DNA of 64,000 bases from a bacterium HR35. GTDB taxonomy: Bacteria; Patescibacteriota; Minisyncoccia; UBA6257; HR35. Position 1 is the first letter of the stretch. The number at the start of each line of letters is the position of its first letter. The notes beneath the pieces were generated by a model that saw only the letters and a list, made by a program, of their open reading frames with translations, did no database searches and was not told the origin of the DNA. This document shows, in pieces, positions 1-38,186 of this stretch. The stretch is from assembly GCA_002898235.1 (NCBI GenBank), contig BEIL01000003.1, positions 2,264 through 66,263 on the forward strand, in the 5' to 3' direction. The position numbers and the translations under genes are program-made.

Positions 1-327
1 ACTGCCTTCGAGGGAGTAATGAACGAGCAACTGGAAAGCCTCATCCTGATCGCCAAGGGGTTAGCAAAAACCGAATCAGAACGCAATGACGTTGACGCTG
101 TTATCCAAGCACATCTCAGCGGCGAAAAGGTAATGGGGCAGTTTAAACAACTTCTGACCCGCATCGTTCAGAACTTCCTCGAGGAGTTTCAAGAAAAGCG
201 AGCGGAGGTTCTGCGGGATCCTTCTTATATCTCGGCTATTCTTGAAAGGGGTGCCGAGATAGCTAAGGATAACGCAGAAGAAACGCTTAGCGCCGCCATG
301 GATGCTTTGCAACTAAAAAGGGGCTAA
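1..327 (+). CDS. trpS: Tryptophanyl-tRNA synthetase, C-terminal fragment; the gene starts upstream of the window (frame 1 is open from nt 1).
   Basis: The translation ...GQFKQLLTRIVQNFLEEFQEKRAEVLRDPSYISAILERGAEIAKDNAEETL matches the conserved C-terminal anticodon-binding helices of bacterial TrpRS, e.g. B. subtilis ...VLDEGAEKANRVASEMV. This stretch is about 50-55% GC, unlike the rest of the window. Confidence 0.6.
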   Translation, partial: TAFEGVMNEQLESLILIAKGLAKTESERNDVDAVIQAHLSGEKVMGQFKQLLTRIVQNFLEEFQEKRAEVLRDPSYISAILERGAEIAKDNAEETLSAAMDALQLKRG

Positions 328-354
328 GAGGTACAAAACTCTTAGCCCCTTTTT
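320..354 (+). terminator. Rho-independent terminator (perfect 11-bp stem ggggctaagag/ctcttagcccc, 8-nt loop, then TTTTT).
   Basis: Hairpin seen directly in the sequence; the trpS stop codon TAA lies inside the 5' arm of the stem. Confidence 0.8.
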
Positions 355-360
355 AAAATT

Positions 361-1551
361 ATGAAAAATTTGCGGTACATAATTAATAATAGAAAAACCA
401 AATTTTATGAAATATTAAAAGAAATAGCACTAGAAGAAAATAGATCCTTTAAAGATATTATAAAAGAGTATAACCAATTACTAAAAGAAAGCAAATTTTC
501 AAATAAAAATTTAAACAAAATAATTAAAAAATTCGGATATACTAAAATTTCCAGAAAATTCAGTTTATATGGGTATAAACTAAATTATAAGTTTTCTCAT
601 TATTATAATTTAGAGATATTTAAAAAAATTCCTCCACAAGAAGTAGCTATCGTAACAGGTTTCGGTCCTACAAATCCACCAACAGCTGGAACTCTAGCAT
701 CTATTTTTAGAGCAATCGAATTGCAAAAAAATACAGGGGTTTATACCCATATAACAATATCGGAATTTGGCGCACTAAATTCTAGACAAAGGCCATTGGA
801 AGAATTAATTCAAAACTCATATAAGTTTATTTCTTTTATTAAAGAATTAGGATTTAATCAGAAAAATGGAGAAATTAGAACCCATAACGACCATGATCAT
901 GCAAGAATATTTTCTCTTGTTGCAAGTGTTTTAACCACTAAAGATCTTTTAAAAAATCTTGAAGTTACTTATAATACCTACAAAAGATTGAATTTATTAG
1001 GTAATGATTTCTCGAGAATGGTTAGCAGAGCTTATGTAATATCAGATATCTTATTACCAATAATCCGGGATAAAAAACGCGGCGTAATAGTACCATTAGG
1101 ATTAGAAGAACATCATCATCCATATCTAGCAAGAATAGTTCTCGAAAGATTGAAATTAAAATATAAAAATTTGATTCGTCAAGATGCAGATGTAGGAGCA
1201 TTATATAATAGAATTATTCCAGGGCTTTTCCCGTATTTTAAAATGTCAAAAAGTATTCCGCAGTCCTCTATTAATTTAGGAGATAATGTTGAAGAATTAC
1301 AAAAAAAAATTATTAATTGTAAAAAAATAGACGAAGAAATTATTTTAAAAATGATGTCTCTGGTTTCTGATTGGGATGAAAATAAATTAAAAAAAGCTGA
1401 AAGGGCATTTAATAATCTAAAAAAAGATTACAGAAGCTGGGTAAAGTTTAAATTTGATTATTTAAATTTTTTCATCAAAATAAAAAATATTTGGGAAAAT
1501 ACGAAGTATCCTAAAAATTTTAATTTACATAAAGAAATTTTTAAAAAATAA
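361..1551 (+). CDS. Class Ic aminoacyl-tRNA-synthetase-fold paralogue (TrpRS-like) with a degenerate HIGH motif, an intact KMSKS motif and an N-terminal extension of about 75 aa.
   Basis: Manual alignment to E. coli TrpRS: IVTGFGPTNPPTAGTLASIF aligns with [21 protein letters not shown], so HIGH/TIGN is replaced by TAGT. VPLGLEEHHHPYLARIV aligns with VPVGEDQKQHLELSRDI, the Trp-recognition region, and is altered. FKMSKS is intact. Confidence 0.6.
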   Translation: MKNLRYIINNRKTKFYEILKEIALEENRSFKDIIKEYNQLLKESKFSNKNLNKIIKKFGYTKISRKFSLYGYKLNYKFSHYYNLEIFKKIPPQEVAIVTGFGPTNPPTAGTLASIFRAIELQKNTGVYTHITISEFGALNSRQRPLEELIQNSYKFISFIKELGFNQKNGEIRTHNDHDHARIFSLVASVLTTKDLLKNLEVTYNTYKRLNLLGNDFSRMVSRAYVISDILLPIIRDKKRGVIVPLGLEEHHHPYLARIVLERLKLKYKNLIRQDADVGALYNRIIPGLFPYFKMSKSIPQSSINLGDNVEELQKKIINCKKIDEEIILKMMSLVSDWDENKLKKAERAFNNLKKDYRSWVKFKFDYLNFFIKIKNIWENTKYPKNFNLHKEIFKK

Positions 1552-2801: not shown

Positions 2802-3917
2802 TTATATAAGTTTAAATTTTTTTATGATATCATAAGAAAATACTCTTTCAATTAAATCACCATGATGTTTCATTTTAATCTCAGGATTATACTGATCGAA
2901 AATCACGTTAATAAAATCGTCATTGTTTATATAATTTCTGAATTTAAAAACTAGATTTTTAACATTATCTATCTCTAAAATATCTGGAAATATTTCAGAA
3001 ATATAATTTAAAGCAAAAAACACATATTTATCAAAACCGTACTTACAAGAGACTTCCAATATTATATCTAGGTTAATCTTGTTAAAATAAGATTGAATAA
3101 AAGTATATATATCAACGAATTTATATAAGTCTAAAACCTTCCTTTTCTTAATCACGTCTATTAAAGCTGATTCCTTATAGAAGTGAATGCATAATTGAAT
3201 AAATAAATATTCTTTTTTTAAAGTATAAATAAAAAAATTGTTATCAATAGGAATAAGAGTTTTTTCTTTTAAAAAACATTCTACTATTTCGCCATTAGAT
3301 TTATTAGATTCCCAATCTAAAGAAAAATTAACGTCCACATTAATTGTTTTAAGAGTATTTTCATCAACAGTTTTAACAAAAGGAGCTGTCTCGCCTTTAG
3401 TATTCATATATTGTGTAACAACCTCTTGTGGAAATTTTTCAATTGTGTTTTTTTTATAATTATATTTACCCTGAATAAAACCTAATTTATACAAAATATC
3501 TTTTACTTGCAGAATAGAGTTTCTAGATATTAAAATATCAATATCATTAAAAGCTCTAGCTCCAAGAGGATAAATAGTAAAAGAAAAAACGCTTCCCTTT
3601 AAAAATACGTGTTCTATATTTGCTTTTTGTAATTCAGAAGAAATGATTTTAATATATTCTTTTTGTAACATAGCTCGTATATATTGTGCTTGATTAATCA
3701 TATATAAAGTAAAAAAAACAGGAAAATCTAATTTTTCTAAGCATCCTATTGTTTTTAGAGTTTCGTACGCAAGGCCAGCAACGCGATGATAACATAAATA
3801 TCCTAGAATCTCGATCCAATTTAAGTTGTTATCTTCGATTATTTTTAGCAATTCATCTCTATTTCTTTTATTTCCTAATCTTACTAGCTTTAACACTGCT
3901 TCGTATTCTTTTTTCAT
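2802..3917 (-). CDS. Uncharacterised nucleotidyltransferase family protein (PF14907-like).
   Basis: VFLKGSVFSFTIYPLGARAFNDIDILISRNS is the KG..hs..lYP....R...DIDlLV signature of the nucleotidyltransferases that co-occur with HprK-like kinases in RiPP clusters. Confidence 0.5.
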   Translation of the reverse strand: MKKEYEAVLKLVRLGNKRNRDELLKIIEDNNLNWIEILGYLCYHRVAGLAYETLKTIGCLEKLDFPVFFTLYMINQAQYIRAMLQKEYIKIISSELQKANIEHVFLKGSVFSFTIYPLGARAFNDIDILISRNSILQVKDILYKLGFIQGKYNYKKNTIEKFPQEVVTQYMNTKGETAPFVKTVDENTLKTINVDVNFSLDWESNKSNGEIVECFLKEKTLIPIDNNFFIYTLKKEYLFIQLCIHFYKESALIDVIKKRKVLDLYKFVDIYTFIQSYFNKINLDIILEVSCKYGFDKYVFFALNYISEIFPDILEIDNVKNLVFKFRNYINNDDFINVIFDQYNPEIKMKHHGDLIERVFSYDIIKKFKLI

Positions 3918-3938: not shown

Positions 3939-4823
3939 TTAGGTTACTTCAAAGTAATTATTTGCCGTGCAACCGACCTCTAATTGTACAGGGAATTCTT
4001 CGTCTAATCTTTTCCAATCTTCATAAAGAATTTCAAAGTTTTCCGTATCTAAAATTTCATCTATATGATCCTTATTTGAGCTTTTGAATACAATTTCCAC
4101 ACAATCTTGTTGCAAAAGCCATTTAACAGCAATTTGGACATTCGTTTTATTGTACTTTTTAGCAACTTCATCTAACAATTTATAAGTACCTTCAGGATAA
4201 AATGGGTCTGGACATCCTGGATACAGTAAACGAATAGGCCTCCACGCAATAAATCTAATTCTATTTTTTCTACAATAATCAATAATCTTTTTTCTTTGAG
4301 ATTCACGGCATACTAAATTATATTGATTTTGAACTGCGTATACTGGTTTTTTTAATAATTGAGAGTATTTTTTTATAGTATCGATTCCAACATTACTTAA
4401 TCCAATATTCTTTATAAGACCCATATCTAGAAGTTTATTCAGAGCTGCGATTGTTTCATTTATAGGAATTTCTGGATTCTGTTTGTGAATGTAATACACA
4501 TCTATATACGATGTTTGGAGTCTTTCGAGAGATTTCTTACAAGATTCAATAACAGCATCATAAAAAAGATTGTATTCACGAACTTTAGTGGCTATAACAA
4601 GCCTATTTCTAGAAAAGCATTTGATTGCTTCTCCTATCAACATTTCTGTCTTTCCACCCGCATAACTTTCTGAAGTATCTATTTGAAATATACCTTTTTT
4701 AATTGCATATCTAATAGCTTCAACATCCCTCTCGTCATCGTTATTTGGATCAGATGTTACATACCCTCCCATACCAAATGTTCCTAGCCAAATTTTTTGT
4801 TTGTAATAACTTCTTTTAATCAT
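3939..4823 (-). CDS. Aldo/keto reductase family oxidoreductase.
   Basis: Contains DTSESYAGGKTEMLIGEA and NIGLSN; length about 290 aa. Confidence 0.65.
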   Translation of the reverse strand: MIKRSYYKQKIWLGTFGMGGYVTSDPNNDDERDVEAIRYAIKKGIFQIDTSESYAGGKTEMLIGEAIKCFSRNRLVIATKVREYNLFYDAVIESCKKSLERLQTSYIDVYYIHKQNPEIPINETIAALNKLLDMGLIKNIGLSNVGIDTIKKYSQLLKKPVYAVQNQYNLVCRESQRKKIIDYCRKNRIRFIAWRPIRLLYPGCPDPFYPEGTYKLLDEVAKKYNKTNVQIAVKWLLQQDCVEIVFKSSNKDHIDEILDTENFEILYEDWKRLDEEFPVQLEVGCTANNYFEVT

Positions 4824-4894: not shown

Positions 4895-6256
4895 CTATTC
4901 ACAAAGCAAAAGCTTGGTTAATCTATTAAATTTTTCAACATCTCCACCAGAATAATAAATCAAATCTTCTATAACCCTAATACCTTCCCCCGAGTTTATG
5001 ACTTCTACTGCTAAATTTGCACCATATTTCAAATCATTAACTATTTCTAAACCTAAAAGATTTAAAGCTACTTCCATAGCTACAACCTGTTTAATACTTT
5101 CATTACTTTTACCAGCCAAAAGTTTAATAAATTCACTTAAATTTTCTATTGTATTTTGTCTACTTTCGATATACTTAATTGGCTTAAAACAAAAACCAAA
5201 ATCTTTCGGAGTAACTGTTTTAATAACTATTTGTCCTTTTATACTTTGAGCAATTTCAGTATTACCATTTATTGATACTTGATCAATAACTGGTTTACCA
5301 TTATAATTTTTACCTTGAATCACAAGTATATTTTTTTTAGGATATAATTTACTCAAGATAGCTAAGCATAATTGTGTTGAACCCCTTGTTAACCCATAAT
5401 TTATTAAATCAGCGTCAATTGGATTAACTATAGCTGCTCCACCAACCAGACCAGCGAAAACTTGCACATCATATAAACGACCATTATAAACTTGATTTAG
5501 CTTTGGTACAATTCTATTAATATCAAATATTCCAACTCCTGTTTTAAGCATAATTTCTATCATTTTTTCTATTGGCAAATTTAAATTTATACCCGCGCTT
5601 TCAAAAATATCGGTAGAACCAGTTACACTTGAAGTAGATCTAGAAGCTGTTTTTGTTATTAAAATATTTTTTCCTAGAACTTTACCTACTGCTGCGGTAA
5701 TAATAGCATTCATAGAACTAATGTTTAGTAATTTAGTTTCTTTTTTACCACTACCAGCTAAATTTATAACTTTGACTTCGCTAGTCAATTTTATCTTTCT
5801 ATCAATATCAAAATTATCTAAACTAAAAGCTGATTTTATTATTGCTAATCCATAATTAACTGCTATTTCTAGATTTTTAGAATTATTCATAAATGACCAT
5901 AAAGCGCCGTAAAAATAACCCATTAAAATATCCCTTTTTTGTGGGTCATTAGGATATGTAAGAATATCTAAAAATAAATTACCTATTTCAAGTGGAGACA
6001 AGATACCTCCATTAAGCAAAAAAACACATTTTTCGAGAATTTCGTTATTAGCAAATTTTCCATAATCTTTATTTGGAAATTCTTTGAATTTCGAAAAGTA
6101 ATACAAAAGGATAATACCTTCATAAACTTTAAAATTGCGATTAGAATTATTAATAAGTTTTAATATTAAATAAGCTTCTGCTTTATTGAAATCTTTACCA
6201 GAAGTTAATTTTTGAGTAAATTTAACGATTTTTTTTATAATATTTTCGTCCATCAT
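4895..6256 (-). CDS. Glycosyl-transferase family 3 fold protein (TrpD / thymidine-phosphorylase-like) with a divergent active site.
   Basis: NLAGSGKKETKLLNISSMNAIITAAVGKVLGK...SVTGSTDIFESAGINLNL aligns with TrpD D-t-c-GTGGDG-NTFNIST-AA-V-AA-G...KHGNR...SGSADVLEALG. The GTGGDG glycine loop is GSGKKE and KHGNR is TKTASR. Confidence 0.45.
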   Translation of the reverse strand: MMDENIIKKIVKFTQKLTSGKDFNKAEAYLILKLINNSNRNFKVYEGIILLYYFSKFKEFPNKDYGKFANNEILEKCVFLLNGGILSPLEIGNLFLDILTYPNDPQKRDILMGYFYGALWSFMNNSKNLEIAVNYGLAIIKSAFSLDNFDIDRKIKLTSEVKVINLAGSGKKETKLLNISSMNAIITAAVGKVLGKNILITKTASRSTSSVTGSTDIFESAGINLNLPIEKMIEIMLKTGVGIFDINRIVPKLNQVYNGRLYDVQVFAGLVGGAAIVNPIDADLINYGLTRGSTQLCLAILSKLYPKKNILVIQGKNYNGKPVIDQVSINGNTEIAQSIKGQIVIKTVTPKDFGFCFKPIKYIESRQNTIENLSEFIKLLAGKSNESIKQVVAMEVALNLLGLEIVNDLKYGANLAVEVINSGEGIRVIEDLIYYSGGDVEKFNRLTKLLLCE

Positions 6257-6263
6257 TAAAATT

Positions 6264-7700
6264 TCAACCTTTAATTACTCCAATTGGAACTAATTTGACT
6301 ATTTTTTTAGCAATGCCAATATTATGAACAACATCAACAACTTCTGACACATCTTTATAAGCTTCTGGTGCTTCTTCAGCAAGACCAGACATACTTCCAG
6401 CAGCAACTGAAATCCCTCTTGCTTCTAATTCTTTTTTTAATTCACTTCCTCTTATTTTTCTTTTTGCTTCTGCTCTGGACATCATTCTTCCTGCGCCATG
6501 TGGAGCTGAACCAAAAGAAATCTTTTTAGCTAATTCTTGGCCAATTAAAACATAACTACTTGTTCCCATTGATCCTGGAATTAGTGTTGGCTGACCAATT
6601 TGACGATATTTTTCAGGAAGCTCAGGGTGCCCTTGCCAAAAAGCCCTAGTTGCTCCTTTTCGATGAACTAATAATTTTTTATTATCGTATTCTTCAATCT
6701 TAACTATATTGTGAGCAATATCATAAACTTGTTTTAATTCAATTTCTTTACCAAAAACTTTTTTAAATGCTTTTCTAACTTCATAAGTAATAAGTTGCCT
6801 GTTAGTAAAAGCAAAATTAGCTGCAGCTTTCATTGCTGCTAAATAATCTTGACCAAGTTCATGACTATAAGGAAAATAAGCTAATTCTCTATCAACTAAA
6901 TCAATTCCTTGTTTATCTAAATATCTTAAAGCTTCTCGAATATAATCAGTGGCAACTTGATGACCTAAACCTCTTGAGCCACAATGAATTAAAACACAAA
7001 CTTTATTTTTTTCTAAACCCAATTTTTTACCAATTTCTTCATCAAAAATTTCAGCTACTCTTTGAATTTCAACAAAATGATTGCCAGCACCAATTGTTCC
7101 TAATTGATCCCTACCCCTATCTTTAGCTGTTTTCGAAACTTTATCAGCTTCAGCTCCTTCAATTTTCCCATAACTTTCAGTTGCTTCTAAATCTTCTTTT
7201 TCAGCATAACCAATTTCATAAAGCCATTTTGCTCCTTCTTCTAAAACTTTTTTCATTTCATCATTATTTAACTTCCAAAAACCTCCTCGACCAACACCAG
7301 AAGGAACCTCTTTAAAAATTTGCTCTGTTAACTTTGGTATTTTATCTTTAATTTCCTCATAATAAAAAGGAGAAACCAAAAGACGAACGCCACAATTGAT
7401 GTCATACCCACAAATCCCAGGAGAAATAATTCCCTCATTTGTATCAAAAGCAGCAACACCTCCCACTGGCGAGCCATAGCCTTCATGGATATCAGGCATT
7501 GCTAAGGAATATTTAAAAATACCAGGTAAAGTGGTTAAATTAACTAATTGCCATAAACTTTTATCTTCTAAAATATCAGCCAACATTTTTTCCGAAGCAA
7601 AAAGACGAGCTGGCACTTTCATATCTTCACGAAAACTTTGAGGAATTTCCCAAATATAATCTGAAATTTTAATTAAATCTTTTTTCTCAGGTTTCTTCAT
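6264..7700 (-). CDS. rtcB: RNA-splicing ligase RtcB.
   Basis: Signatures MPDIHEGYGSPVGGV and GTIGAGNHFVEIQ; 478 aa. Confidence 0.85.
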   Translation of the reverse strand: MKKPEKKDLIKISDYIWEIPQSFREDMKVPARLFASEKMLADILEDKSLWQLVNLTTLPGIFKYSLAMPDIHEGYGSPVGGVAAFDTNEGIISPGICGYDINCGVRLLVSPFYYEEIKDKIPKLTEQIFKEVPSGVGRGGFWKLNNDEMKKVLEEGAKWLYEIGYAEKEDLEATESYGKIEGAEADKVSKTAKDRGRDQLGTIGAGNHFVEIQRVAEIFDEEIGKKLGLEKNKVCVLIHCGSRGLGHQVATDYIREALRYLDKQGIDLVDRELAYFPYSHELGQDYLAAMKAAANFAFTNRQLITYEVRKAFKKVFGKEIELKQVYDIAHNIVKIEEYDNKKLLVHRKGATRAFWQGHPELPEKYRQIGQPTLIPGSMGTSSYVLIGQELAKKISFGSAPHGAGRMMSRAEAKRKIRGSELKKELEARGISVAAGSMSGLAEEAPEAYKDVSEVVDVVHNIGIAKKIVKLVPIGVIKG

Positions 7701-8344
7701 TTTTGATTAGCTAACTCTTTTTCTATTTCTTTTTCTAGAGAATCATAACTAGTTAAAGTTACCAACTTTCTATTAACAAAAAAACTTGGCGTTCCTTGAA
7801 GTCCAAACTTTAAAGCTTCACTCCTTTCATTTAGAATTTTTTCTTTTATTTCTTGGTTTTCAAAATCTTTTTTGAATTTATCTAAATCCAAATTCAGGGT
7901 TTTAGCATAGGAAAGAAAAAGTTCTTTTGGATTCGGAGAATTCTTCCATTCTGCTTGTTTTTCAAAAAGAAGGTTATGCATTTCCCAAAACTTTCCTTGT
8001 TTGCTAGCTGCTTCAGCTGCTTGAGCTGCCATTAATGCCTTAGGATGAATTTCGATTAAAGGTAAATGACGATAAATAAAAACAACTTCATCTTTATACT
8101 TTTCTTTTAGAGATTTCACTCTAGGATAAAAAGACTGGCAAGCTGGACATTCAAAATCTGAATATTCAATTACGACAATTTTTGCCTTATTTAAATCACC
8201 TAAAATGTGATCTGTTTCTCTAGGAAAAACATCATATTCTTTTTTAGCCAAGCGAAAACTGCTAACAAATCCCATAAAAACTAAAGAAAAAATAACTAAA
8301 CCAACAAAAATTGTAAAAAAAATGTTGTTTCTATTTTTATCCAT
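7697..8344 (-). CDS. DsbA-family thiol:disulfide oxidoreductase, membrane anchored.
   Basis: N-terminal TM helix, a thioredoxin-fold CPAC active-site motif (FECPACQSF) and the FIYRHLPL region. Confidence 0.65.
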   Translation of the reverse strand: MDKNRNNIFFTIFVGLVIFSLVFMGFVSSFRLAKKEYDVFPRETDHILGDLNKAKIVVIEYSDFECPACQSFYPRVKSLKEKYKDEVVFIYRHLPLIEIHPKALMAAQAAEAASKQGKFWEMHNLLFEKQAEWKNSPNPKELFLSYAKTLNLDLDKFKKDFENQEIKEKILNERSEALKFGLQGTPSFFVNRKLVTLTSYDSLEKEIEKELANQK

Positions 8345-24471: not shown

Positions 24472-25536
24472 ATGAGTCAAACAATGGTTACTGAACAAAA
24501 TCAAGGATTAAAAGTGAAAGTTAAGAATATAACAATAGGTAGTATTTTGGAGGGAGTTGTTATCAGTAAGAAAAAGGGTGAGCTTTTTGTTGATTTGAGT
24601 CCTTTTGGAACAGGAAGGCTTTATGGGATTTTTTTCAAAGAGTGTGAGGATTTAGCAAAAAAAGTAAATGTTGGTGATAAAGTTGGAGTAAAGGTTGTTG
24701 GTTTAAATGATGGTTATGGAAATTTAGAAATTGTTCTTCAAGATACTTTTCAAATTAATCGCTGGCAAAAGATTTTGGAATATCAAAGAAATAAAACAGT
24801 TTTGGAATTGGAAATTAAAGAAGCTAATCGAGGTGGTTGGATTATTGAGCTTGAAGGCATTCAGGGTTTCATTCCTGTTTCTCAACTTTCGCCTGAATAT
24901 TATCCTCGAGTAAGTAATAATGATAAAGAGGCTATTTTAGAACATCTTAAAAAATTTGTTGGTCAAAAAATTAAATGCGTTGTTTGGTTAGCTGATCCTC
25001 AAAAAAACAAGTTAGTTCTTTCAGAAAAATTAACAAAAGCTGAAATTTATCAAAAGGTTTTAGAAAGTCTTCAGGTTGGTCAAATTTTAGATGTTAAAGT
25101 TGTTGGTATCAGTTCCTTTGGTGTTTTTGTTAGGTTTCATACTAACCCTGATATGGATGGTTTAATTCATATTATGGAAATTCCTCCAGAGTTAGCAAAT
25201 GACCTTCAAAAAAATTTTCCTTTAGGCAAAATCTTAAAAGCAAAAATTATTCAAATAAAACAAGATAGAGTTAATTTTTCTCTTAAAGATTTGAGGCCTG
25301 ATCCTTGGTTAATGGTTAAAGAATTTTATCGTGAAGGCTCTCAAGTCCAGGGGCTGGTTAAGGAAAAAAATAATATCTTTGGTGTAGCTGAAATTTCAGT
25401 AGGAGAGTATGGAAGTATTCAGGGTTATGTTTTTGAAGGAGTAGAAAAATTGGAGGTTAATAAGAGCTATAATTTTTTAATCGAAACTTTAAATCCCAAA
25501 GAAAAACATCTTGTTTTAAAACCGATTGATGCTTAG
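24472..25536 (+). CDS. rpsA: S1 RNA-binding-domain protein (short ribosomal protein S1 homologue, about 4 S1 repeats).
   Basis: Repeated G-x-V-x-G-x-V-(x)n-G-V/A-F-V S1 motifs (GSILEGVVISKKKGELFVDL, GQILDVKVVGISSFGVFVRF, and others). Confidence 0.6.
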   Translation: MSQTMVTEQNQGLKVKVKNITIGSILEGVVISKKKGELFVDLSPFGTGRLYGIFFKECEDLAKKVNVGDKVGVKVVGLNDGYGNLEIVLQDTFQINRWQKILEYQRNKTVLELEIKEANRGGWIIELEGIQGFIPVSQLSPEYYPRVSNNDKEAILEHLKKFVGQKIKCVVWLADPQKNKLVLSEKLTKAEIYQKVLESLQVGQILDVKVVGISSFGVFVRFHTNPDMDGLIHIMEIPPELANDLQKNFPLGKILKAKIIQIKQDRVNFSLKDLRPDPWLMVKEFYREGSQVQGLVKEKNNIFGVAEISVGEYGSIQGYVFEGVEKLEVNKSYNFLIETLNPKEKHLVLKPIDA

Positions 25537-28500
25537 AAATAATTATCTTAAATACTTTATTTTAGTTTTCTCTTTAATTCTTTTTTTCTCAATTTTATTT
25601 GTTGGTGAGAAAAAAATCAAAGAAGAGCAAAGCGTTTCTTTTCCTGTATTTTTAGAAAAGGTAAAAAATGGCGAAGTTAAAGAAATTAACTTAGAAAACG
25701 AAACTAATTTTACTTTTATTACTCAAGACAATAAAGTTTTTAATTCGAATAAGGATCCTAATGTTAGCTTTTGGGAAGTCTTCGAAAAAGAAAAAATACC
25801 TAAAGAAGTTTATCTGAAGATTAAAATTACTAAAAAAACAGAAGCTTCTTGGCTTCAACTTTTTCTTTCTTTTCTAATTAATGTTATTCCAATAATAATT
25901 ATTACTTGGTTTATTTGGCAGATTTTCAGACAGACGCAAAGAGGTACAAGTCAAATTTTTTCTTTTGGCAAATCAGGAATTAAAGTTTATAATCCCAATG
26001 ATCCAAATCGAATAACTTTTAAAGATGTAGCTGGCCTTGAAGAAGCTAAACAAGAACTTATGGAAGTTGTTGAATTTTTAAAAAATCCTGAAAAGTTTTT
26101 CAAAATTGGAGCTCGAATTCCTAAAGGAGTATTACTAGTGGGGCCGCCTGGAACCGGGAAAACAATGTTGGCTCAAGCAACAGCCTCGGAGGCTGGTGTT
26201 CCTTTCTTTTATATTTCTGGTTCTGAGTTTGTTGAAATGTTTGTCGGTGTTGGTGCTTCAGTAACTGGAGACACACCGATATTAATAAAAAGAGGAAACA
26301 AAATTAAGTTAACAACTATCGGTAAGTTTGTTGATAAATTTTATCAAGAAAATGAAAGTGGTTTTGTTAAATTTATAGACGGTTATGAAACTTTAGGTTA
26401 TGAACCACAAAGAAAAGTTTATTTTGGCAAGCCAATCTGGACAAATATTCGTGGCGTTTTTAGACATAAAGTCAATGAGATTTATGAAATTTATTTTAGA
26501 GGGGGGAAAATAAAAACAACTGGAGATCATAGCGTTTTTGTCAGAGAAAAAAATAGAATTATTCCTAAAAAAGTAAGTGAATTAAAAGTTGGTGATTGTT
26601 TAGTAAATTTACCATTTAAACGAAGAAGTGTTTTTGTTAAAGGAATAGGCACAACTCATAAGATTTCAACTTTTGATCTTGAAGAAAAAGAGATTTATTT
26701 AGATTTATATGAGAAAGAGTATAATAAAGCTTTGTTTAGTTACCAGTTTGCTTTAGAAAATAGAAATATTTTGAGTCAAGCGAAAATAGGAAAAATTTTA
26801 GGATTAGCGCAGACTACAATTAAAGATTGGCAATTAGGAAGGAGAAGGCCGAAAATATTTTCGAGCTTTAATATCTTTAGATTTAAAATCCCGCCTAAAA
26901 TAAAAGTGGATTTAGATTTGATGAAACTTCTTGGCTATTATGTTGCTGAAGGGAGAACAACAGATTATTTCACTCAATTTGTTTTTGGGATTCATGAAAG
27001 AGATTTGATTAAAGATTGTTCAAATTTAATTGAAAAGATTTTTAACATAACACCCCATATCAAAGATTGTCCTGAAACTAACTCCTGTCGAATTACTATT
27101 TACTCATCAATTATTAGCAAATTTTTTAAAAAGCACTGTGGTACTGGGGCCAAGAAAAAGCATATTCCTCCTTTCTTGTGGCAAATTCCCTTTCCTTATT
27201 TCAAATCATTTTTAGAAGGTCTTTACAGGGGTGATGGTTACATTACAAAAGAAGGAAAGTTAATTATTACCACAACTTCAAGAAGGTTAGCTTTAGAGCT
27301 TATTTGGCTTTCGGCTCTCCATGGAATTCAAGTTGGACTAAGAAAAACAAAATCGCCTGAAAGAAAAATAAGAGAGAAAATTCTTAAGCCATCTAAATAT
27401 TACCTAGTAATTTTTGGAAAGACATCTAATCCTTTTCTTAAAAATAAAAAGACTTCTCAACCTAAAAAACCAATAATAACAAAAATAATTAAAAAACCCT
27501 ATGATGGTTATGTTTATGACCTTTGTGGTTGTGATAATGAAGCATTTTTTGGAGGAGAAAAACCTATTTTACTTCATAACAGTCGCGTCCGTGATGCATT
27601 TTCTGTTGCTAAAAGAAATCAACCTTGTTTAACAGGTGATACAATTATTACTTTAAGCAATGGAGAAGAAATTACTATTAAAGAGATTTATGAGAAAAAA
27701 TTGATTGGCAAAGAGGTTTTAGCTTTTGATGAAAATCTTAATCTTAAAACCGCAAAAATAATTGGTGTTAGCAAAACACCCGATCAAGAAATATTAAAAA
27801 TATCTACAATCATCGACACCATAAAATTAACTCCCGATCATCTTTTACCTACTTTGAAAGATGGCAGGTTAGAATGGGTAGAAGCCAAAGAACTAAAAGA
27901 GGGAGATTTCATAGCTTATCCAAAGAAAATTCCTGAAGAATTTAGGATTCAATCAATAAGAACTCTAACTTTGATTCCTGAAGAAACAAGAATTTACTTC
28001 AAAAACAATTGTCTGCCTAAAATATATGGAAATAAAAAGTATTATCATTCAGTTAAATTAAAAGAAATATATTTAGATAAAATTGACGAAGAAAACATTG
28101 CTTGGATTGCTTTAGGCAAAGGTGGTTTTACTGATTCTTATCTCTACAGAATACCAAAATATTTGAATGAAGATATTCTTTATCTTAAAGGCTTAATAGA
28201 TGGTGATGGTTCTTATCATAAAAACAAATTCAATATTACTTTTGTTAATACTGAGTTGTATCTTCACCAAGAAGTTAAAAAGATTGTTTTAGATAATTTT
28301 GGAATTTCTGCGAAGACTTATAAAAACAAAAAATATTATCGCAATCTTCCTCAAGGGAAACCACCTCAAAATCTTAAAGATTGTTATACCACTCATATTA
28401 ATAACAAGTTAGTTAAAATCATCCTGAAAAACATTGATGAGATTCTTCTTTCTTTACCAAACAATCTTATAGCTGCTTGGATAAGGGGCATTTTTGATAG

Positions 28501-30151
28501 TGATGGTTATGTAGCCAGTATCAAAAATCATCCCAAGATTGTAATTACTTCTACTGACGAAACGTTGAACAAAAAAATTAGATCTGCTTTATTAAGATTA
28601 GGAATAATTGGCTATTGCACTGCTTCTAATAATTTTGGTAATATTGAAATTACAGGAAAGGAAAATATTAAACGTTTTAGAGAAATAGTTGGCTCTAATC
28701 ATCCTAAGAAATTGCAGAGATTAAAAAATTTAAATTTAGAAGGAGTAAGATTTTGGCGCTTAAATCAGATTCCATTAGGTTTGTTGCTTAAAGAAGCTAG
28801 GATTTCTTTAGGGATAGGGCAAAGGAGTTTTAAAAATGGGCATATGATTTCTTGTTGGGAAAGAAATATTCATTTACCATCTTTAGAGAATTTGGAAATA
28901 AAAGTTAAAGAAATGGAGAAAATAATTAGTGAAAAAAATTTATCTCCAACTCAAAGCTTTGAAAAATTAAAATCATTTGTCTACGGTGATGTAAGTTGGG
29001 TAAAAATTAAAAAAATTGAAAAAGTAAATCAAAAAGAAGACGTTTATGATCTTATTTTAGATAAATATCATAATTTCATTGCTAATAATCATTTTGTTCA
29101 TAATTGCATTTTGTTCATTGATGAGCTTGACGCTATTGGAAAAATAAGAGGAGCGGGAATTACTGGCGCTCATGAAGAAAGAGAGCAAACATTAAATCAA
29201 ATTTTAGTTGAAATGGATGGTTTTGAAAAAGGAACAAAAGTCGTTGTTTTAGCGGCGACAAATAGACCTGATGTTCTTGATCCAGCTCTTCTTCGTCCAG
29301 GAAGATTTGACCGCAAAATTGTTTTGGATTTGCCTGATATTAAAGCTAGAGAGGAAATTTTAAAAATTCATTTAAGAGATAAAAGAGTTGGTAAAGTTAA
29401 TTTAAGGCAAGTAGCTGAAAGAACTCCTGGTTTTTCTGGAGCTGATTTAGCTAATTTATGTAATGAAGCTGCAATTTTAGCAGCCAGAAGAAACAAAGAA
29501 TTTATCACTCAACAAGAACTTTTAGATTCAATTGAAAAAGTTTTATTAGGTCCAGAAAGAAAAACAAAAGCCTATTCAAAAAAAGAAAAAGAAATTGCTG
29601 CTTATCATGAAGCTGGCCATGCCATTGTTGCTCATTATTTGCCTTATACTAATCCAGTTCAAAAAATTTCAATTATTTCTCGCGGTCGAGCAGGTGGTTA
29701 TACTTTAAAAACACCCCTTGAAGACAGAAGCTTTTATTTTAAGAAAGAATTTTTAGATGAATTGGCTTCAATGCTTGGTGGTTATGCTGCTGAAAAATTA
29801 ATTTTTAACGATATTACTACTGGAGCCAGTAATGATTTAGAAATTGCTACTGATTTAACTAGACAATTAGTAACTAAATTTGGAATGTCAGAAAAACTTG
29901 GTCCAATTTCAATCTCCCAAAAACCAAAAGAATTTGTTTTAGAAAAAGAGTACTCTGAAAAAACAGCTGAACTTATCGATGAAGAAGTAAAAAATATTAT
30001 TCACCAAGCATTAGAAAGAGCAACAAAGGTTTTAGAAATTAAAAAAGATAAATTAGAAAAAGTTGCTCAAGTTTTAATCAAAAAAGAAGTGATTGAGAAA
30101 AAACAATTTGAGAGATTAGTTGGCGAGAAAAAAGGAAGTTTAAATATTTAA
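25526..30151 (+). CDS. ftsH: ATP-dependent zinc metalloprotease FtsH, interrupted by two in-frame inteins; the mature extein is about 607 aa.
   Basis: Walker A GPPGTGKT, the FVEMFVGVGA | SRVRD | CILFIDELDA extein blocks, the HEAGHA zinc site and an N-terminal TM anchor; a 1541-aa ORF. Confidence 0.9.
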   Translation: MMLRNNYLKYFILVFSLILFFSILFVGEKKIKEEQSVSFPVFLEKVKNGEVKEINLENETNFTFITQDNKVFNSNKDPNVSFWEVFEKEKIPKEVYLKIKITKKTEASWLQLFLSFLINVIPIIIITWFIWQIFRQTQRGTSQIFSFGKSGIKVYNPNDPNRITFKDVAGLEEAKQELMEVVEFLKNPEKFFKIGARIPKGVLLVGPPGTGKTMLAQATASEAGVPFFYISGSEFVEMFVGVGASVTGDTPILIKRGNKIKLTTIGKFVDKFYQENESGFVKFIDGYETLGYEPQRKVYFGKPIWTNIRGVFRHKVNEIYEIYFRGGKIKTTGDHSVFVREKNRIIPKKVSELKVGDCLVNLPFKRRSVFVKGIGTTHKISTFDLEEKEIYLDLYEKEYNKALFSYQFALENRNILSQAKIGKILGLAQTTIKDWQLGRRRPKIFSSFNIFRFKIPPKIKVDLDLMKLLGYYVAEGRTTDYFTQFVFGIHERDLIKDCSNLIEKIFNITPHIKDCPETNSCRITIYSSIISKFFKKHCGTGAKKKHIPPFLWQIPFPYFKSFLEGLYRGDGYITKEGKLIITTTSRRLALELIWLSALHGIQVGLRKTKSPERKIREKILKPSKYYLVIFGKTSNPFLKNKKTSQPKKPIITKIIKKPYDGYVYDLCGCDNEAFFGGEKPILLHNSRVRDAFSVAKRNQPCLTGDTIITLSNGEEITIKEIYEKKLIGKEVLAFDENLNLKTAKIIGVSKTPDQEILKISTIIDTIKLTPDHLLPTLKDGRLEWVEAKELKEGDFIAYPKKIPEEFRIQSIRTLTLIPEETRIYFKNNCLPKIYGNKKYYHSVKLKEIYLDKIDEENIAWIALGKGGFTDSYLYRIPKYLNEDILYLKGLIDGDGSYHKNKFNITFVNTELYLHQEVKKIVLDNFGISAKTYKNKKYYRNLPQGKPPQNLKDCYTTHINNKLVKIILKNIDEILLSLPNNLIAAWIRGIFDSDGYVASIKNHPKIVITSTDETLNKKIRSALLRLGIIGYCTASNNFGNIEITGKENIKRFREIVGSNHPKKLQRLKNLNLEGVRFWRLNQIPLGLLLKEARISLGIGQRSFKNGHMISCWERNIHLPSLENLEIKVKEMEKIISEKNLSPTQSFEKLKSFVYGDVSWVKIKKIEKVNQKEDVYDLILDKYHNFIANNHFVHNCILFIDELDAIGKIRGAGITGAHEEREQTLNQILVEMDGFEKGTKVVVLAATNRPDVLDPALLRPGRFDRKIVLDLPDIKAREEILKIHLRDKRVGKVNLRQVAERTPGFSGADLANLCNEAAILAARRNKEFITQQELLDSIEKVLLGPERKTKAYSKKEKEIAAYHEAGHAIVAHYLPYTNPVQKISIISRGRAGGYTLKTPLEDRSFYFKKEFLDELASMLGGYAAEKLIFNDITTGASNDLEIATDLTRQLVTKFGMSEKLGPISISQKPKEFVLEKEYSEKTAELIDEEVKNIIHQALERATKVLEIKKDKLEKVAQVLIKKEVIEKKQFERLVGEKKGSLNI
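26258..27580 (+). mobile_element. Intein 1 in FtsH (441 aa; Ser1 ... His-Asn, +1 Ser) with a LAGLIDADG-type homing-endonuclease domain.
   Basis: Starts with SVTGDTPIL (block A with Ser as the nucleophile) and ends ILLHN|SRVRD. LAGLIDADG-like motifs are LLGYYVAEGRT and LEGLYRGDGYI. It is inserted between FtsH GVGA and SRVRD. Confidence 0.75.
27626..29104 (+). mobile_element. Intein 2 in FtsH (493 aa; Cys1 ... His-Asn, +1 Cys) with a LAGLIDADG homing-endonuclease domain.
   Basis: Starts with CLTGDTIITL (classic block A) and ends FVHN|CILFIDELDA. LAGLIDADG motifs are LKGLIDGDGSY and WIRGIFDSDGYV. It is inserted immediately before the Walker B region. Confidence 0.8.
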
Positions 30152-33896: not shown

Positions 33897-35168
33897 TTAA
33901 TAATTGACAATTACTCTATAATAATCTTTATCTTCTTCTTGCCTGTAATTTAAATTCAACAACTCTTTTCGAAAATCTTCTAATTTTTCTTTGGGAACTT
34001 TAAAAATTGCCTCCCGTCTATCAAAATCATAACTTTCTAAAGAATATTTTTCGGAGAGAAACAAAACTTTTAAATAATTTTCATTTTTTTTATTTTCAAT
34101 TTTTTGAACAATTTCCAAAAGATAATCTAAACTATTTTGGATTTCCCTTAAATTACCTCTTAAAGGATGTTTAGCTAAATTTTCTTTTATTTCTTTTTCT
34201 GATCGGGAAAGTTTTGAATAATAAAAGCCAAAAACTAAAATAGCAATCAGAGAAACGACTATCAAAAAAATAGAAGCTACCAAAATAGGCCTTCTTATTT
34301 TAGTGAAAAAATAGACATTTTTAGGTTTGAGATTAAGAAAATCAAGGAAGGGTTGATCTTGAAAAATTTTCCTTAAAAGAACAACTCCGCCTTTAGCTAT
34401 AAATTCATAAGGATTAATTAAAATTGTTTGAAGATTGGAGAGGGCTGTTTCTTTAAAAGAAAAAATTAGGATTTCAAATTTTTTGTTTAAACTTTGAAAA
34501 TAGCCGATATATCTTTGAAAAAAAATTTCAAAATTAGTATTTTCGCTAATTTCTTCTAGAAATAAACTTTCTAACTTTAAATTTTCTAAATACAGGATAT
34601 GAGTAAGTTTTTCGTCAATAAAAAAAACTAAATAATTTTCGCTAAAAGTAATTTTTGCTTCATAAATTAAATTACTTAAAATGGCTTCAACAGAAGGAGC
34701 AATAAAATAAATTGTTAAATTTTCTTTAAAAAGAACCTCTAAAATAGCTTCTTCAATTTCTCTAGGGAAGAAAAAAATATCAAAATTAGCTAAATTACCG
34801 CTAAGTTTGTAAATATCTTCTTTAAAAATAAATTTATATCTTTCCAAAGGCAGAGGAAGATTGACCTGGAGATAATTTTTGATAGCTGAAGCTGGATCTG
34901 TTGTTCGGGGTATAGTAATTCTTTGAAAAAAAATATTAGGTAAATGAAGAATAATTCCTAATTCGTTTAATTTATATTTAGTTAGAAGCTCTTTTAATGC
35001 TTTTTCAAAGTTTTCTTTAAAAAAAACACCATTACTATAAATTTCTCCTTTCAAAATTTCCAATCTTTTAAGTTTAATTTCATTGTCTTTTTCTTCAAGA
35101 TCATAGTAAATTAACCTATCTGAAGAAATAAGAAGAATATCTATAATTTCTTCTTTGAATATTTTCAT
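33897..35168 (-). CDS. Hypothetical bitopic membrane protein (cytoplasmic domain of about 285 aa, one TM, extracytoplasmic tail of about 120 aa).
   Basis: TM helix ILVASIFLIVVSLIAILVFGFYY; no catalytic motif recognised; ATGA overlap with the downstream solute-binding gene. Confidence 0.3.
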   Translation of the reverse strand: MKIFKEEIIDILLISSDRLIYYDLEEKDNEIKLKRLEILKGEIYSNGVFFKENFEKALKELLTKYKLNELGIILHLPNIFFQRITIPRTTDPASAIKNYLQVNLPLPLERYKFIFKEDIYKLSGNLANFDIFFFPREIEEAILEVLFKENLTIYFIAPSVEAILSNLIYEAKITFSENYLVFFIDEKLTHILYLENLKLESLFLEEISENTNFEIFFQRYIGYFQSLNKKFEILIFSFKETALSNLQTILINPYEFIAKGGVVLLRKIFQDQPFLDFLNLKPKNVYFFTKIRRPILVASIFLIVVSLIAILVFGFYYSKLSRSEKEIKENLAKHPLRGNLREIQNSLDYLLEIVQKIENKKNENYLKVLFLSEKYSLESYDFDRREAIFKVPKEKLEDFRKELLNLNYRQEEDKDYYRVIVNY

Positions 35169-36712
35169 TTTGAGTATATATTTTGAATTTTAACAAATCT
35201 CTCAGAAAAGTCATTAACAAAAAAGATATCAAAACCTTCAAATTTTTTATCTACTAAATAGAGATAATAGGGATTAACTAAAAATATATTACTTTTTTGG
35301 TCCAAAATAATTTTTTCAATTTCTTGTTGAGAAGAGAAGATATCTTTAGCTGGATTAATTTTTGTTTCTAAAATTTCTTTTTCCAAAATTTTACTTTCGC
35401 TATTATTTAAATTAATGCCGGTTTGAGAGAAAAAATAAGCAAGATTAGGTGGATAACCATAATTAATTCCATAAAGAAGAGCTTGGTAATCTTTATTTTT
35501 TATTATTTCATTTAGATCGATCCTGGAGACAATTACAAAATCTATTTTAAATTTTGACTTAAGATATCTAGCTAAATCTGGGTAATAAAATGAATTAGGT
35601 AAAATAAGAGTAAAATCAAATTGAGGTTTAGCTGTTTTTTGCGGACTTAAAACTTCAACTCCTTTCAAATTTAAAATTTTTCTTACTGATGGCGAAAAAA
35701 TTCCTTCACTCTTTTCAGCATAGTTATTAAAAACATTCTTCACTATTTCTTGCCTATCGAGATTAGCATTAAGAAAATCAACAATTTCATTTGCTTTTAT
35801 TTTCTGTTGATTAAAAAAGATGCCAATAACCCTTGGTAAGACGATTTTATAAATTCTAATTCTTTTTTTAAAGCCTGAAGGTAAATTAAAATAATTAATA
35901 CCTGCTAAAGCATCAATCTCTTTTGTAAAAAAAGCAGTTAGGGCTTCTTTTTGGTCTTTAAAAATATGAAATTCAATCCTCTTTAGATAAACCTTTTCTG
36001 GAAAATACTTATTTCTTTCTAAAACGATAATTTTTTTCTTATTATTTCTAACTTCTTTCAAAACAAAAGGACCAAAACCATTTTGAGCTAAATCTAAGGC
36101 ATAAAAATCAGGAGAATAATGAGAAAAAACCTTTACCGGCAGGGGTTTGAGATAGACTAGATTATAAATTAAATAATTATCCGGGAATTTAGAAATAAAA
36201 ACGCCTTGGCTTTCGTTTATTATTTTAAATTCTAATTGAGAAAAAAACCGAGAAATTTCAGAAGGAGCGAATTTTTTAGCAAACTCTAAACCAAAGCGAA
36301 TATCTTCGGTTGTTAATTTTTCTCCATTGGCCCAATAAAGCTTATCTTTAAGAGTTATTTGAATTTCAGTTTTTTCTTTATTAACTAAATAACTTTTGAG
36401 AAATTTAGAAATAATTTTGCCGTTATAGTTTTCAAAAAGAGACGGGAAAATAATATTAGCAATTGTTTTTTCAGTATCATTAGTAGTAAGATAAGGAGTT
36501 AAAGTTTTAACATCTTCATAAACCCCTTCTCGATAAATTCCATTAGTTTTTTTACTAGTGAAAATTAGATAATCTGGAAAAATAAAAACTAATCCTAAGG
36601 CTAAAAAGGAAATAAAAAAGAAAACATAAATAGGAAAAAAATCTAATTGGCCATTTTTAATAAGCTTTCTTGTTTTTAAATAAAAATCACGAATTTCTTT
36701 ATTTATTTTCAT
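35165..36712 (-). CDS. ABC-transporter substrate-binding protein, family 5 (peptide/nickel, OppA-like), N-terminally membrane anchored.
   Basis: Size (515 aa), N-terminal anchor, and a family-5 SBP-like region KLTTEDIRFGLEF...; the assignment is by overall resemblance only. Confidence 0.4.
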   Translation of the reverse strand: MKINKEIRDFYLKTRKLIKNGQLDFFPIYVFFFISFLALGLVFIFPDYLIFTSKKTNGIYREGVYEDVKTLTPYLTTNDTEKTIANIIFPSLFENYNGKIISKFLKSYLVNKEKTEIQITLKDKLYWANGEKLTTEDIRFGLEFAKKFAPSEISRFFSQLEFKIINESQGVFISKFPDNYLIYNLVYLKPLPVKVFSHYSPDFYALDLAQNGFGPFVLKEVRNNKKKIIVLERNKYFPEKVYLKRIEFHIFKDQKEALTAFFTKEIDALAGINYFNLPSGFKKRIRIYKIVLPRVIGIFFNQQKIKANEIVDFLNANLDRQEIVKNVFNNYAEKSEGIFSPSVRKILNLKGVEVLSPQKTAKPQFDFTLILPNSFYYPDLARYLKSKFKIDFVIVSRIDLNEIIKNKDYQALLYGINYGYPPNLAYFFSQTGINLNNSESKILEKEILETKINPAKDIFSSQQEIEKIILDQKSNIFLVNPYYLYLVDKKFEGFDIFFVNDFSERFVKIQNIYSK

Positions 36713-36717
36713 TAAAA

Positions 36718-36933
36718 TTAAACCTTAATTCTAATTAGAGAAAGCAAAAGAAAAACAAAAATCATAAACCAAGTAAAGTAATAAATTAGTTTTTCCATGC
36801 CTCTTTTTTTAAAAAAGAATTCTGTTTGAAAACCAAAAAAGGCACCACCACTAACTCCTCTTTGTTGAAGCAAAATTAAAACAACAATTAAACCACCTGA
36901 TAAAATTTGTAAAAATTCAATTAAGCCTTTCAT
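36718..36933 (-). CDS. secG: Preprotein translocase subunit SecG.
   Basis: The LILLQQRGVSGGAFFG motif (SecG consensus LLQ-x-GKG-x-G...FG) and two TM helices; 71 aa. Confidence 0.7.
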   Translation of the reverse strand: MKGLIEFLQILSGGLIVVLILLQQRGVSGGAFFGFQTEFFFKKRGMEKLIYYFTWFMIFVFLLLSLIRIKV

Positions 36934-38185: not shown

Positions 38186-38186
38186 T

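Follow-up and report, generated by a model that had tools for sequence, protein, structure and literature searches.

What is the task of a protein built like a tryptophanyl-tRNA synthetase (TrpRS) that is encoded directly downstream of an ordinary TrpRS gene? The question is raised by the first kilobases of the window studied here, a stretch of 64,000 nucleotides (nt) from bacterium HR35 (Patescibacteriota; assembly GCA_002898235.1, contig BEIL01000003.1, positions 2,264 to 66,263), where the end of trpS is followed on the forward strand by a gene at 361–1551 for a TrpRS-fold paralogue of 396 amino acids (aa). The translated open reading frame (ORF) is HRbin35_00446 of "bacterium HR35" (100% identity). 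Our reading, tentative and held at a little less than even confidence, is that this protein is a catalytically active, Trp-specific descendant of class Ic aminoacyl-tRNA synthetases (aaRS) that works in a metabolic cassette and not in translation. As its motifs and neighbours suggest, the acceptor to which it attaches tryptophan would most likely be a small molecule derived from ribose and not tRNA. We propose such a ribose conjugate because genes for an enzyme similar to phosphoribosyltransferases, for a phosphatase and a reductase and for a genuine TrpRS accompany that of the paralogue, and we favour ATP-dependent activation because KMSKS and [HT]xGT, the motifs of the ATP site, are so well conserved. 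No published description of these paralogues was found in the literature searched, and a survey of duplicated synthetases and synthetase-like proteins from 2022 has no non-translational entry resembling TrpRS or the tyrosyl-tRNA synthetase (TyrRS), cyclodipeptide synthases (CDPS) being handled separately (PMC9437257). They are a so far undescribed offshoot of TrpRS, for which the function given here is proposed from sequence and gene context.

The preliminary description of this DNA had the protein following TrpRS block by block, and both the match to PF00579 (tRNA-synt_1b; E=5.6e-9, 36.2 bits against a gathering threshold of 21.1) and an hhalign alignment to bacterial TrpRS bear this out. The architecture is that of a full TrpRS, with the class Ic Rossmann catalytic domain and a helical C-terminal domain, and the closest structures are archaeal and eukaryotic TrpRS. 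The N-terminal extension of about 75 aa that had been singled out is there, but it fills the place of the N-terminal domain of the archaeal and eukaryotic enzymes. The paralogue stays far under the cut-off of every NCBIfam TrpRS or TyrRS model (NF008925 is the best, with 58.8 bits against 451, and TIGR00233 gives 43.3 against 176.75). Nor is this the make-up of a CDPS, which consists of a Rossmann domain only (ca. 220–250 aa), without HIGH, KMSKS or the C-terminal domain, and would have other CDPS as its closest structures. In a metagenome-assembled genome (MAG) of a rumen Bacilli (locus L004, 7624–7959, the same as L017, 9597–9929), a 111-aa ORF directly upstream of the paralogue encodes the latter's helical C-terminal domain as a free-standing version (29% identity over 72 aa).

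Motif equivalences were taken from the profile-profile hhalign comparison with bacterial TrpRS (probability 96.8%) and from HMMER alignments with the enzymes of A. pernix and P. horikoshii, and conservation in the wider family was counted over ca. 100 representatives clustered at 50% identity. All the motifs lie on the forward strand. The KMSKS loop is intact, as had been noticed: K294-M-S-K-S298 (1240–1254) aligns with K192MSKS196, and each of its residues is kept in at least 104 of 109–117 representatives. The first ATP-binding signature, HIGH, had been called destroyed. It does read T108-A-G-T111 (682–693, inside the invariant block VTGFGPTNxPTAGTL) at the place of T15-I-G-N18 of bacterial TrpRS and of H-I-G-H in archaea, but Thr and Gly are common to TAGT and TIGN, and the fourth residue is Thr instead of N/H. 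TAGT does not vary in 25 relatives of about 49–67% identity, and the wider family has H/T-x-G-T, with H in 73 and T in 29 representatives at position 108, G110 in 96 of 105 and T111 in 100 of 106. Because position 108 takes either H or T in this way, TAGT appears to be a variant of a working HxGT, that is, a nucleotide site with a family-specific change and not the pattern of a pseudo-enzyme.

The amino-acid side of the pocket has been remodelled. VPLGLEEHHH is the equivalent of AIDQ/GEDQ, as had been supposed, G247-L-E-E-H251 (1099–1113) replacing this motif and G247-L-E-E250 aligning with G144-E-D-Q147; G247 and E250 are each found in 103 of 104 representatives, and GxDQ has become Gx[DE]E. 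That the contacts to the Trp side chain are changed holds for the positions of F5/Y77 (now V98), Q9 (G102) and Q111 of P. horikoshii (I/T132), but not for D132, the Asp by which bacterial TrpRS recognises the indole NH (PMC2831299). By hhalign, D229-I230 (1045–1050) corresponds to D132-I133 of the B. stearothermophilus enzyme; the pair is invariant among close relatives and D229 is kept in 98 of 101 representatives. Conservation extends into the C-terminal, anticodon-binding-type domain, where W360 is present in 94 of 99 and W378 in 92 of 92. Taken together, [HT]xGT, D-[IVF], Gx[DE]EH and KMSKS are diagnostic of the family. Compared with the canonical and auxiliary TrpRS (housekeeping, indolmycin-resistant TrpRS1, TrpRS II), the paralogue has the same fold, but GLEE instead of GxDQ, Thr as the fourth residue of HIGH, and no indole-stacking aromatic residue.

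The upstream gene had been taken for a bona fide trpS, and so it is. Positions 1–327 (forward strand) hold the 3' end (108 codons) of an ordinary bacterial-type trpS ("type B") that matches TIGR00233 and contains GEGKMSKS. A Logan contig extends the fragment as far as KMSKS, and the full protein (P0367, "Tryptophan--tRNA ligase [bacterium HR35]", 365 aa, T-V-A-N at HIGH) is the standard TrpRS type of Parcubacteria, with >6337 relatives. With this enzyme next door, the suspicion that the paralogue is not a housekeeping synthetase is supported. The contrary arrangement, in which a foreign, GC-rich trpS would stand beside a paralogue acting as the only orthodox TrpRS, fails, since this TrpRS is GC-rich in every relative. 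The GC content of trpS in the window is ~0.49 against about 0.26–0.27 in its surroundings, and type-B trpS genes exceed their genomes by 10–22 percentage points in every locus examined, with or without the cassette (in the cassette-free locus L033, 0.49 against 0.27; the GC-rich genes lie at 6001–7068 in L033, 790–1761 in L009, 6848–7942 in L006 and 6001–6993 in L032). That the jump in GC near position 350 marks an assembly chimera was rejected, as the same junction appears in the independent Logan assembly and type-B trpS is always GC-rich. So was a foreign origin of the low-GC region: this DNA is the chromosome, because rpoB, rpoC, gyrA and ftsH lie in the window at the same low GC. TrpRS enzymes of the Parcubacteria type carry T-[VI]-A-N at the HIGH position, with Ala in place of a Gly that is otherwise near-universal, and that of HR35 contains not a single Trp residue.

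The junction between both genes is occupied by a terminator-like hairpin followed by a U-run (314–355, forward strand; -28.7 kcal/mol, z = -8.3). It overlaps with the stop codon of trpS, and 5 nt separate its end from the ATG of the paralogue. The same layout was found in L006 (~7950–7985) and L009 (~1787–1822), and into the 5–30 nt between hairpin and ATG a promoter does not fit. Transcription may have to read through the hairpin to reach the paralogue, or else this structure may serve in RNA processing or stability. A scan for promoter and terminator consensus sequences gave no more sites than expected by chance, and no T-box was detected in the window. Control by a T-box or riboswitch was discarded, the T-boxes in related loci belonging to the valyl-tRNA synthetase gene and to another class I aaRS neighbour gene.

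Downstream of the paralogue, four genes on the reverse strand belong to the cassette. They encode a cassette-specific P-loop protein of the HPr-kinase/PEPCK fold (1608–2783, Walker A SLSGKTT), a nucleotidyltransferase-fold protein of the NTP_transf_5 family (2802–3917; PF14907, E=1.9e-31) that is co-conserved across cassettes at 45–64% identity, an aldo/keto reductase (3939–4823; Pfam E=4e-53; 57–72% identity between cassettes) and a TrpD-like (Glycos_transf_3) phosphoribosyltransferase homologue (4895–6256), the last recognised by Pfam and NCBIfam models under the trpD cut-off. Over its whole length, the profile of the TrpD-like protein aligns with structures of anthranilate phosphoribosyltransferase (E=9e-33), and NIS/T, SSxxGSxD and DE are kept, but GTGGD has turned into GSGKK and KHGN into KAxS; it is a divergent enzyme and not TrpD itself. 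No tryptophan pathway was seen in the examined regions of cassette genomes. The HPr-kinase-like and NTP_transf_5 pair is limited to the version of the cassette in Patescibacteria and Bacilli, the latter adding two HAD-type phosphatases. The same pair of folds occurs as PsmK/PsmN (a PadeK-type HPr-kinase-like and an NTP_transf_5-type protein) in lasso-peptide clusters, where the pseudomycoidin pair phosphorylates the C-terminal Ser and then puts a hexose on the phosphate (PMC6993621); unlike there, no lasso-peptide genes accompany the pair in the window.

The linkage of these genes is very consistent. All ca. 27 non-redundant loci of the type found in the window (Group I, see below) with enough flanking sequence contain the paralogue, the TrpD-like gene and a bona fide TrpRS, the latter within a few kb (frameshifted in an Elusimicrobia MAG), and most have a HAD phosphatase and an oxidoreductase as well. 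The TrpD-like gene adjoins the paralogue or is fused to it in all loci, with signs of translational coupling. Fusions of both were found in a Polyangia MAG (L024) and in P0126, P0127 and P0136, and in P0151 it is a Cof-type HAD phosphatase (Hydrolase_3) that is fused to the paralogue. As for the associated synthetase, the genome of Patescibacteria BroJett037, with a contig of 1.1 Mb, carries two bona fide TrpRS genes of different type within one cassette (L002, 9210–11470, and L010), one with H-L-G-H (type A) and one with T-V-A-N (type B), and resolvase, relaxase and helix-turn-helix genes just upstream suggest a mobile element.

Searched against 1.84 billion cluster representatives, the family profile retrieved 181 proteins at E<=1e-3, 131 at 1e-10 and 40 at 1e-30, with no true TrpRS at E<=1e-3. 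The paralogues form a small, discrete family, whose members are labelled "hypothetical protein" or, at JGI, "tryptophanyl-tRNA synthetase". The same gene set, shuffled in order and with 40–80% identity, is present in Patescibacteria, WS2/Lithacetigena, DPANN archaea, Bacilli/"Tenericutes" (MAGs of ~1–1.5 Mb) and a Thermoanaerobaculia MAG of 61% GC. More distant members (32–45% identity) come from Elusimicrobia, Polyangia, Falkowbacteria, Micromonospora, Salinispora, Pilimelia and Actinoplanes. Their loci likewise combine TrpRS with the TrpD-like gene, a HAD phosphatase and an oxidoreductase dependent on NAD or FAD. In some of them, exporters (of the major facilitator superfamily, MFS, or EamA), a NUDIX hydrolase, several radical-SAM enzymes or an aminotransferase are added; in the Elusimicrobia cluster these are an MFS transporter together with radical-SAM enzymes, in the Micromonospora one an EamA exporter and a NUDIX hydrolase. 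Two of the distant members (P0169 and P0213) are fused to an N-terminal region (residues ~1–570) containing LLDDNIMSGMT, which resembles the phosphoribosyl pyrophosphate (PRPP) loop of type I phosphoribosyltransferases, although Pfam and PDB sequence searches of this region for such a domain were negative.

The wider family splits into two clean groups. Group I, to which the protein of the window belongs, has T-x-G-T and D-[IV] (~24 clusters), and Group II has H-x-G-T and D-F (~55 clusters). A Group II member is found on the Bacillus thuringiensis plasmid pBMB172, in an operon flanked by insertion sequences that comprises the paralogue, a TrpD-like gene (GSGKK), a Zn-alcohol dehydrogenase (Zn-ADH), a HAD protein, an MFS transporter and tyrS. 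Scanning metagenomes with the Group II alignment yielded 80 loci with a paralogue/TrpD-like/ADH/HAD operon. A TyrRS gene lies next to the cassette in 46 of them (in 12 out of 16 where the flanks are long), and not one of the 80 has a bona fide TrpRS; conversely, no TyrRS was found in Group I loci or anywhere in the window. The type of the paralogue and the neighbouring canonical synthetase switch together, Trp in Group I and Tyr in Group II, and the function of the paralogue is therefore tied to the amino acid of its neighbour. Some Group II cassettes contain two TyrRS side by side (e.g., L039, 3054–4205; similar, weak matches in L035, L101, L103, L112 and L080), one being bacterial-type and the other archaeal-type with H-L-G-T, as in the paralogue family.

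The preliminary description had offered an adenylating or aminoacyl-transfer role, which agrees with the conservation of the ATP-site motifs and with the surrounding genes. The route that we infer, in each of its chemical steps, substrates and products, from the observed fold, motif conservation, linkage, fusions and neighbour co-variation would begin with the TrpD-like enzyme using PRPP to make a phosphoribosyl conjugate, from which the HAD phosphatase would take off the phosphate. An oxidoreductase would then remodel the sugar (the aldo/keto reductase in the window; a short-chain dehydrogenase/reductase, a Zn-ADH or an NAD-epimerase elsewhere). The paralogue, holding ATP through T-x-G-T and KMSKS and the indole through D229, would form tryptophanyl-adenylate (Trp-AMP) and pass the tryptophanyl group to the ribose-derived acceptor instead of tRNA, with Tyr taking the place of Trp in Group II. 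In the version of the window, the HPr-kinase-like and NTP_transf_5 proteins might add a further phospho-linked decoration. The logic would be that of MshC, the paralogue of cysteinyl-tRNA synthetase in mycothiol synthesis, which keeps its ATP motifs and ligates an amino acid to a sugar-derived acceptor made by glycosyl transfer and subsequent dephosphorylation. Unlike the paralogue, MshC has no linked cognate synthetase, and the acceptor chemistry is established for MshC only. The end product would look like Trp-AMP or like the 3' end of a charged tRNA(Trp), and such mimicry would explain the TrpRS beside the cassette, which may confer immunity, be the copy that is targeted, or work as a partner that supplies the pathway.

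Several features weigh against this proposal. The gene content does not identify the acceptor molecule, and the C-terminal domain is strongly conserved, which is a better fit for tRNA binding than for a pure small-molecule ligase. The indole-stacking aromatic residue (F5/Y77) is gone, and the substrate could therefore be a derivative of Trp rather than Trp. The TrpRS of the Patescibacteria cassettes is of the ordinary housekeeping type, not obviously an extra immunity copy, and no exporter was found in the cassettes of Patescibacteria and Bacilli or in most Group II loci.

The main rival to ATP-dependent activation is that the paralogue takes Trp from the Trp-tRNA(Trp) made by its neighbour and moves it to a ribose-derived, AMP-like acceptor that sits in its altered adenylate pocket, reversing the second step of an aaRS, which we consider possible but unlikely. 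It would account for a genuine cognate synthetase that is always adjacent and changes from Trp to Tyr together with the paralogue, for the highly conserved anticodon-binding-type domain and for the remodelling of the ribose/amino-acid motif from GxDQ to Gx[DE]E. It also has precedents in SbzA (similar to isoleucyl-tRNA synthetase, SB-203208) and AcmF (similar to alanyl-tRNA synthetase, AlaRS; ascamycin), for which such a reversal has been proposed and which build mimics of aminoacyl-AMP, their clusters encoding a cognate aaRS as well (PMC12945691). In these pathways, as here, a synthetase paralogue is part of a biosynthetic cluster with, or doubling as, a copy of the cognate synthetase (AcmD is a canonical AlaRS borne by the cluster), and a canonical synthetase for the same amino acid is indeed co-located in the multi-enzyme clusters of both Group I (TrpRS) and Group II (TyrRS). 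Their donor is the aminoacyl-tRNA, SbzA keeps a HYGH motif, and what they make is an aminoacyl conjugate mimicking the aminoacyl-adenylate, as the product of the paralogue might do by analogy. However, they belong to class Ia and class II families and have no phosphoribosyltransferase partner. Against this rival stands KMSKS: its lysines act on the phosphates of ATP in the activation step, and it hardly varies among the paralogues but has been lost in the CDPS, the known class Ic derivatives that use aminoacyl-tRNA; and a cassette-specific tRNA gene was not found. Likewise, a Pyl-type expansion of the genetic code was dismissed, as there is no cassette-linked tRNA gene.

A role on RNA, which seems quite improbable to us, would be either a specialised charging of tRNA (with a modified Trp, or as a stress or resistant TrpRS) or, in the manner of GluQRS (PMC9437257), the aminoacylation of a ribosyl tRNA modification placed by the TrpD-like protein. 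The complete synthetase architecture with its C-terminal domain, the conserved ATP site and the lysine-rich GSGKK that replaces GTGGD in the TrpD-like proteins would all suit it. Paralogues beside a bacterial TrpRS do recur in the candidate phyla radiation (CPR) and DPANN, where archaeal-type TrpRS-A adjoins the bacterial-type enzyme in CPR genomes; but the TrpRS-A as well as the TrpRS-A-like and ORF1 loci carry a tRNA(Trp)(A73) gene and ORF1 and no TrpD-like gene (Mukai et al. 2017, PMC5370408), whereas ours are devoid of that tRNA gene and of an ORF1-type partner and contain TrpD-like, HAD and reductase genes. A dedicated tRNA was not found in or near the cassettes, all TrpRS equivalog scores are far under the cut-off (e.g., the 58.8 against 451 bits mentioned above), and the phosphatase fusion, the sugar oxidoreductases and the exporters point to small-molecule chemistry. 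If instead the pairing with the phosphoribosyltransferase homologue is what matters, its tightness, the translational coupling and the repeated fusions, along with the retained indole-binding Asp, recall HisZ-HisG, in which an aaRS paralogue is coupled to a phosphoribosyltransferase (PMC9437257, PMC9734150). The paralogue would then be a non-catalytic, amino-acid-sensing subunit that regulates or activates the TrpD-like enzyme, an explanation that we find distinctly improbable. The resemblance has its limits: HisZ is a class II protein without adenylation activity that has lost the activation residues, and its partner is the ATP phosphoribosyltransferase HisG and not a divergent TrpD homologue. 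The regulatory pseudo-synthetase that the preliminary description had allowed for is disfavoured, in spite of this real precedent, by a near-universal KMSKS and [HT]xGT that exceed the needs of a ligand sensor. Moreover, the groups of Trp type and Tyr type share their downstream enzymes, which means that the amino acid sensed is not what the pathway makes, and there is also the fusion to a phosphatase. Least credible, to the point of being nearly negligible, is a CDPS-like enzyme or the decaying relic of a displaced TrpRS. The origin from a class Ic Rossmann domain is common to CDPS and paralogue, but the paralogue is not decaying, because its identity (about 49–67%) and its invariant motifs hold across phyla. 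Anti-phage defence was set aside too, PADLOC giving nothing meaningful and phage matches being nil.

Going beyond a Trp-activating enzyme in a metabolic cassette, one may ask what the conjugate would be for. We think it rather doubtful, though worth stating, that the two sister families (Trp and Tyr) build, with their TrpD-like partners, aminoacyl-ribosyl antimetabolites against the cognate synthetase, with the linked TrpRS or TyrRS conferring immunity and the cassettes being mobile. The pBMB172 operon with its MFS transporter and tyrS, the Elusimicrobia MFS and the Micromonospora EamA exporters suggest a secreted product with immunity, although the many exporter-free cassettes mean that a secreted antibiotic is not a general reading. 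Micromonospora is also the source of SB-219383, a tyrosine-containing inhibitor of TyrRS, and the actinomycete cassette bears a likeness to the puromycin pathway, with its NUDIX hydrolase, phosphatase, oxidoreductase, aminotransferase, amino-acid ligase and exporter. Producers of aaRS inhibitors carry immunity copies of the aaRS (PMC7916415).

Other genes of the window lie outside this system. The gene for the RNA ligase RtcB (6264–7700, reverse strand) has as its best match an "intein-containing RtcB" model, yet its length is normal. It shares 4 nt with an overlapping gene (7697–8344, reverse strand) for a thioredoxin-like homologue of the Rcas_1661-family (seleno)lipoproteins, and in other genomes neither of them belongs to the cassette. 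FtsH (25526–30151, forward strand; 1541 aa) contains inteins with homing-endonuclease domains of the LAGLIDADG type, two stretches each matching Intein_splicing and LAGLIDADG_3. Finally, a two-gene module is repeated in tandem at 33897–39734 (reverse strand; 423+515 aa, then 422+515 aa), and a Pfam scan of one of its proteins gave no match.

What is new here is an aaRS paralogue family that travels with its cognate aaRS alongside; recruitment of synthetases to metabolite chemistry is of a known kind, and for this family it is suggested by sequence and context. The family is now defined by its diagnostic motifs, by its obligatory partners and by a division into Trp and Tyr types that follows the neighbouring synthetase, and it includes culturable test hosts, namely B. 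thuringiensis with pBMB172 and the islands of Micromonospora, Salinispora and Actinoplanes. Should the paralogue turn out to be regulatory or directed at tRNA, it would be a second case like HisZ or GluQRS, likewise of interest. If the products are aminoacyl-adenylate mimics, the cassettes would be a new source of TrpRS and TyrRS inhibitors and of resistance determinants, and a rare case of specialised chemistry kept in genomes of ~1 Mb. They would then represent horizontally mobile, aaRS-directed antimetabolite cassettes that extend from ultra-small symbionts (Patescibacteria, DPANN and reduced Bacilli) to actinomycetes and a plasmid of B. thuringiensis.

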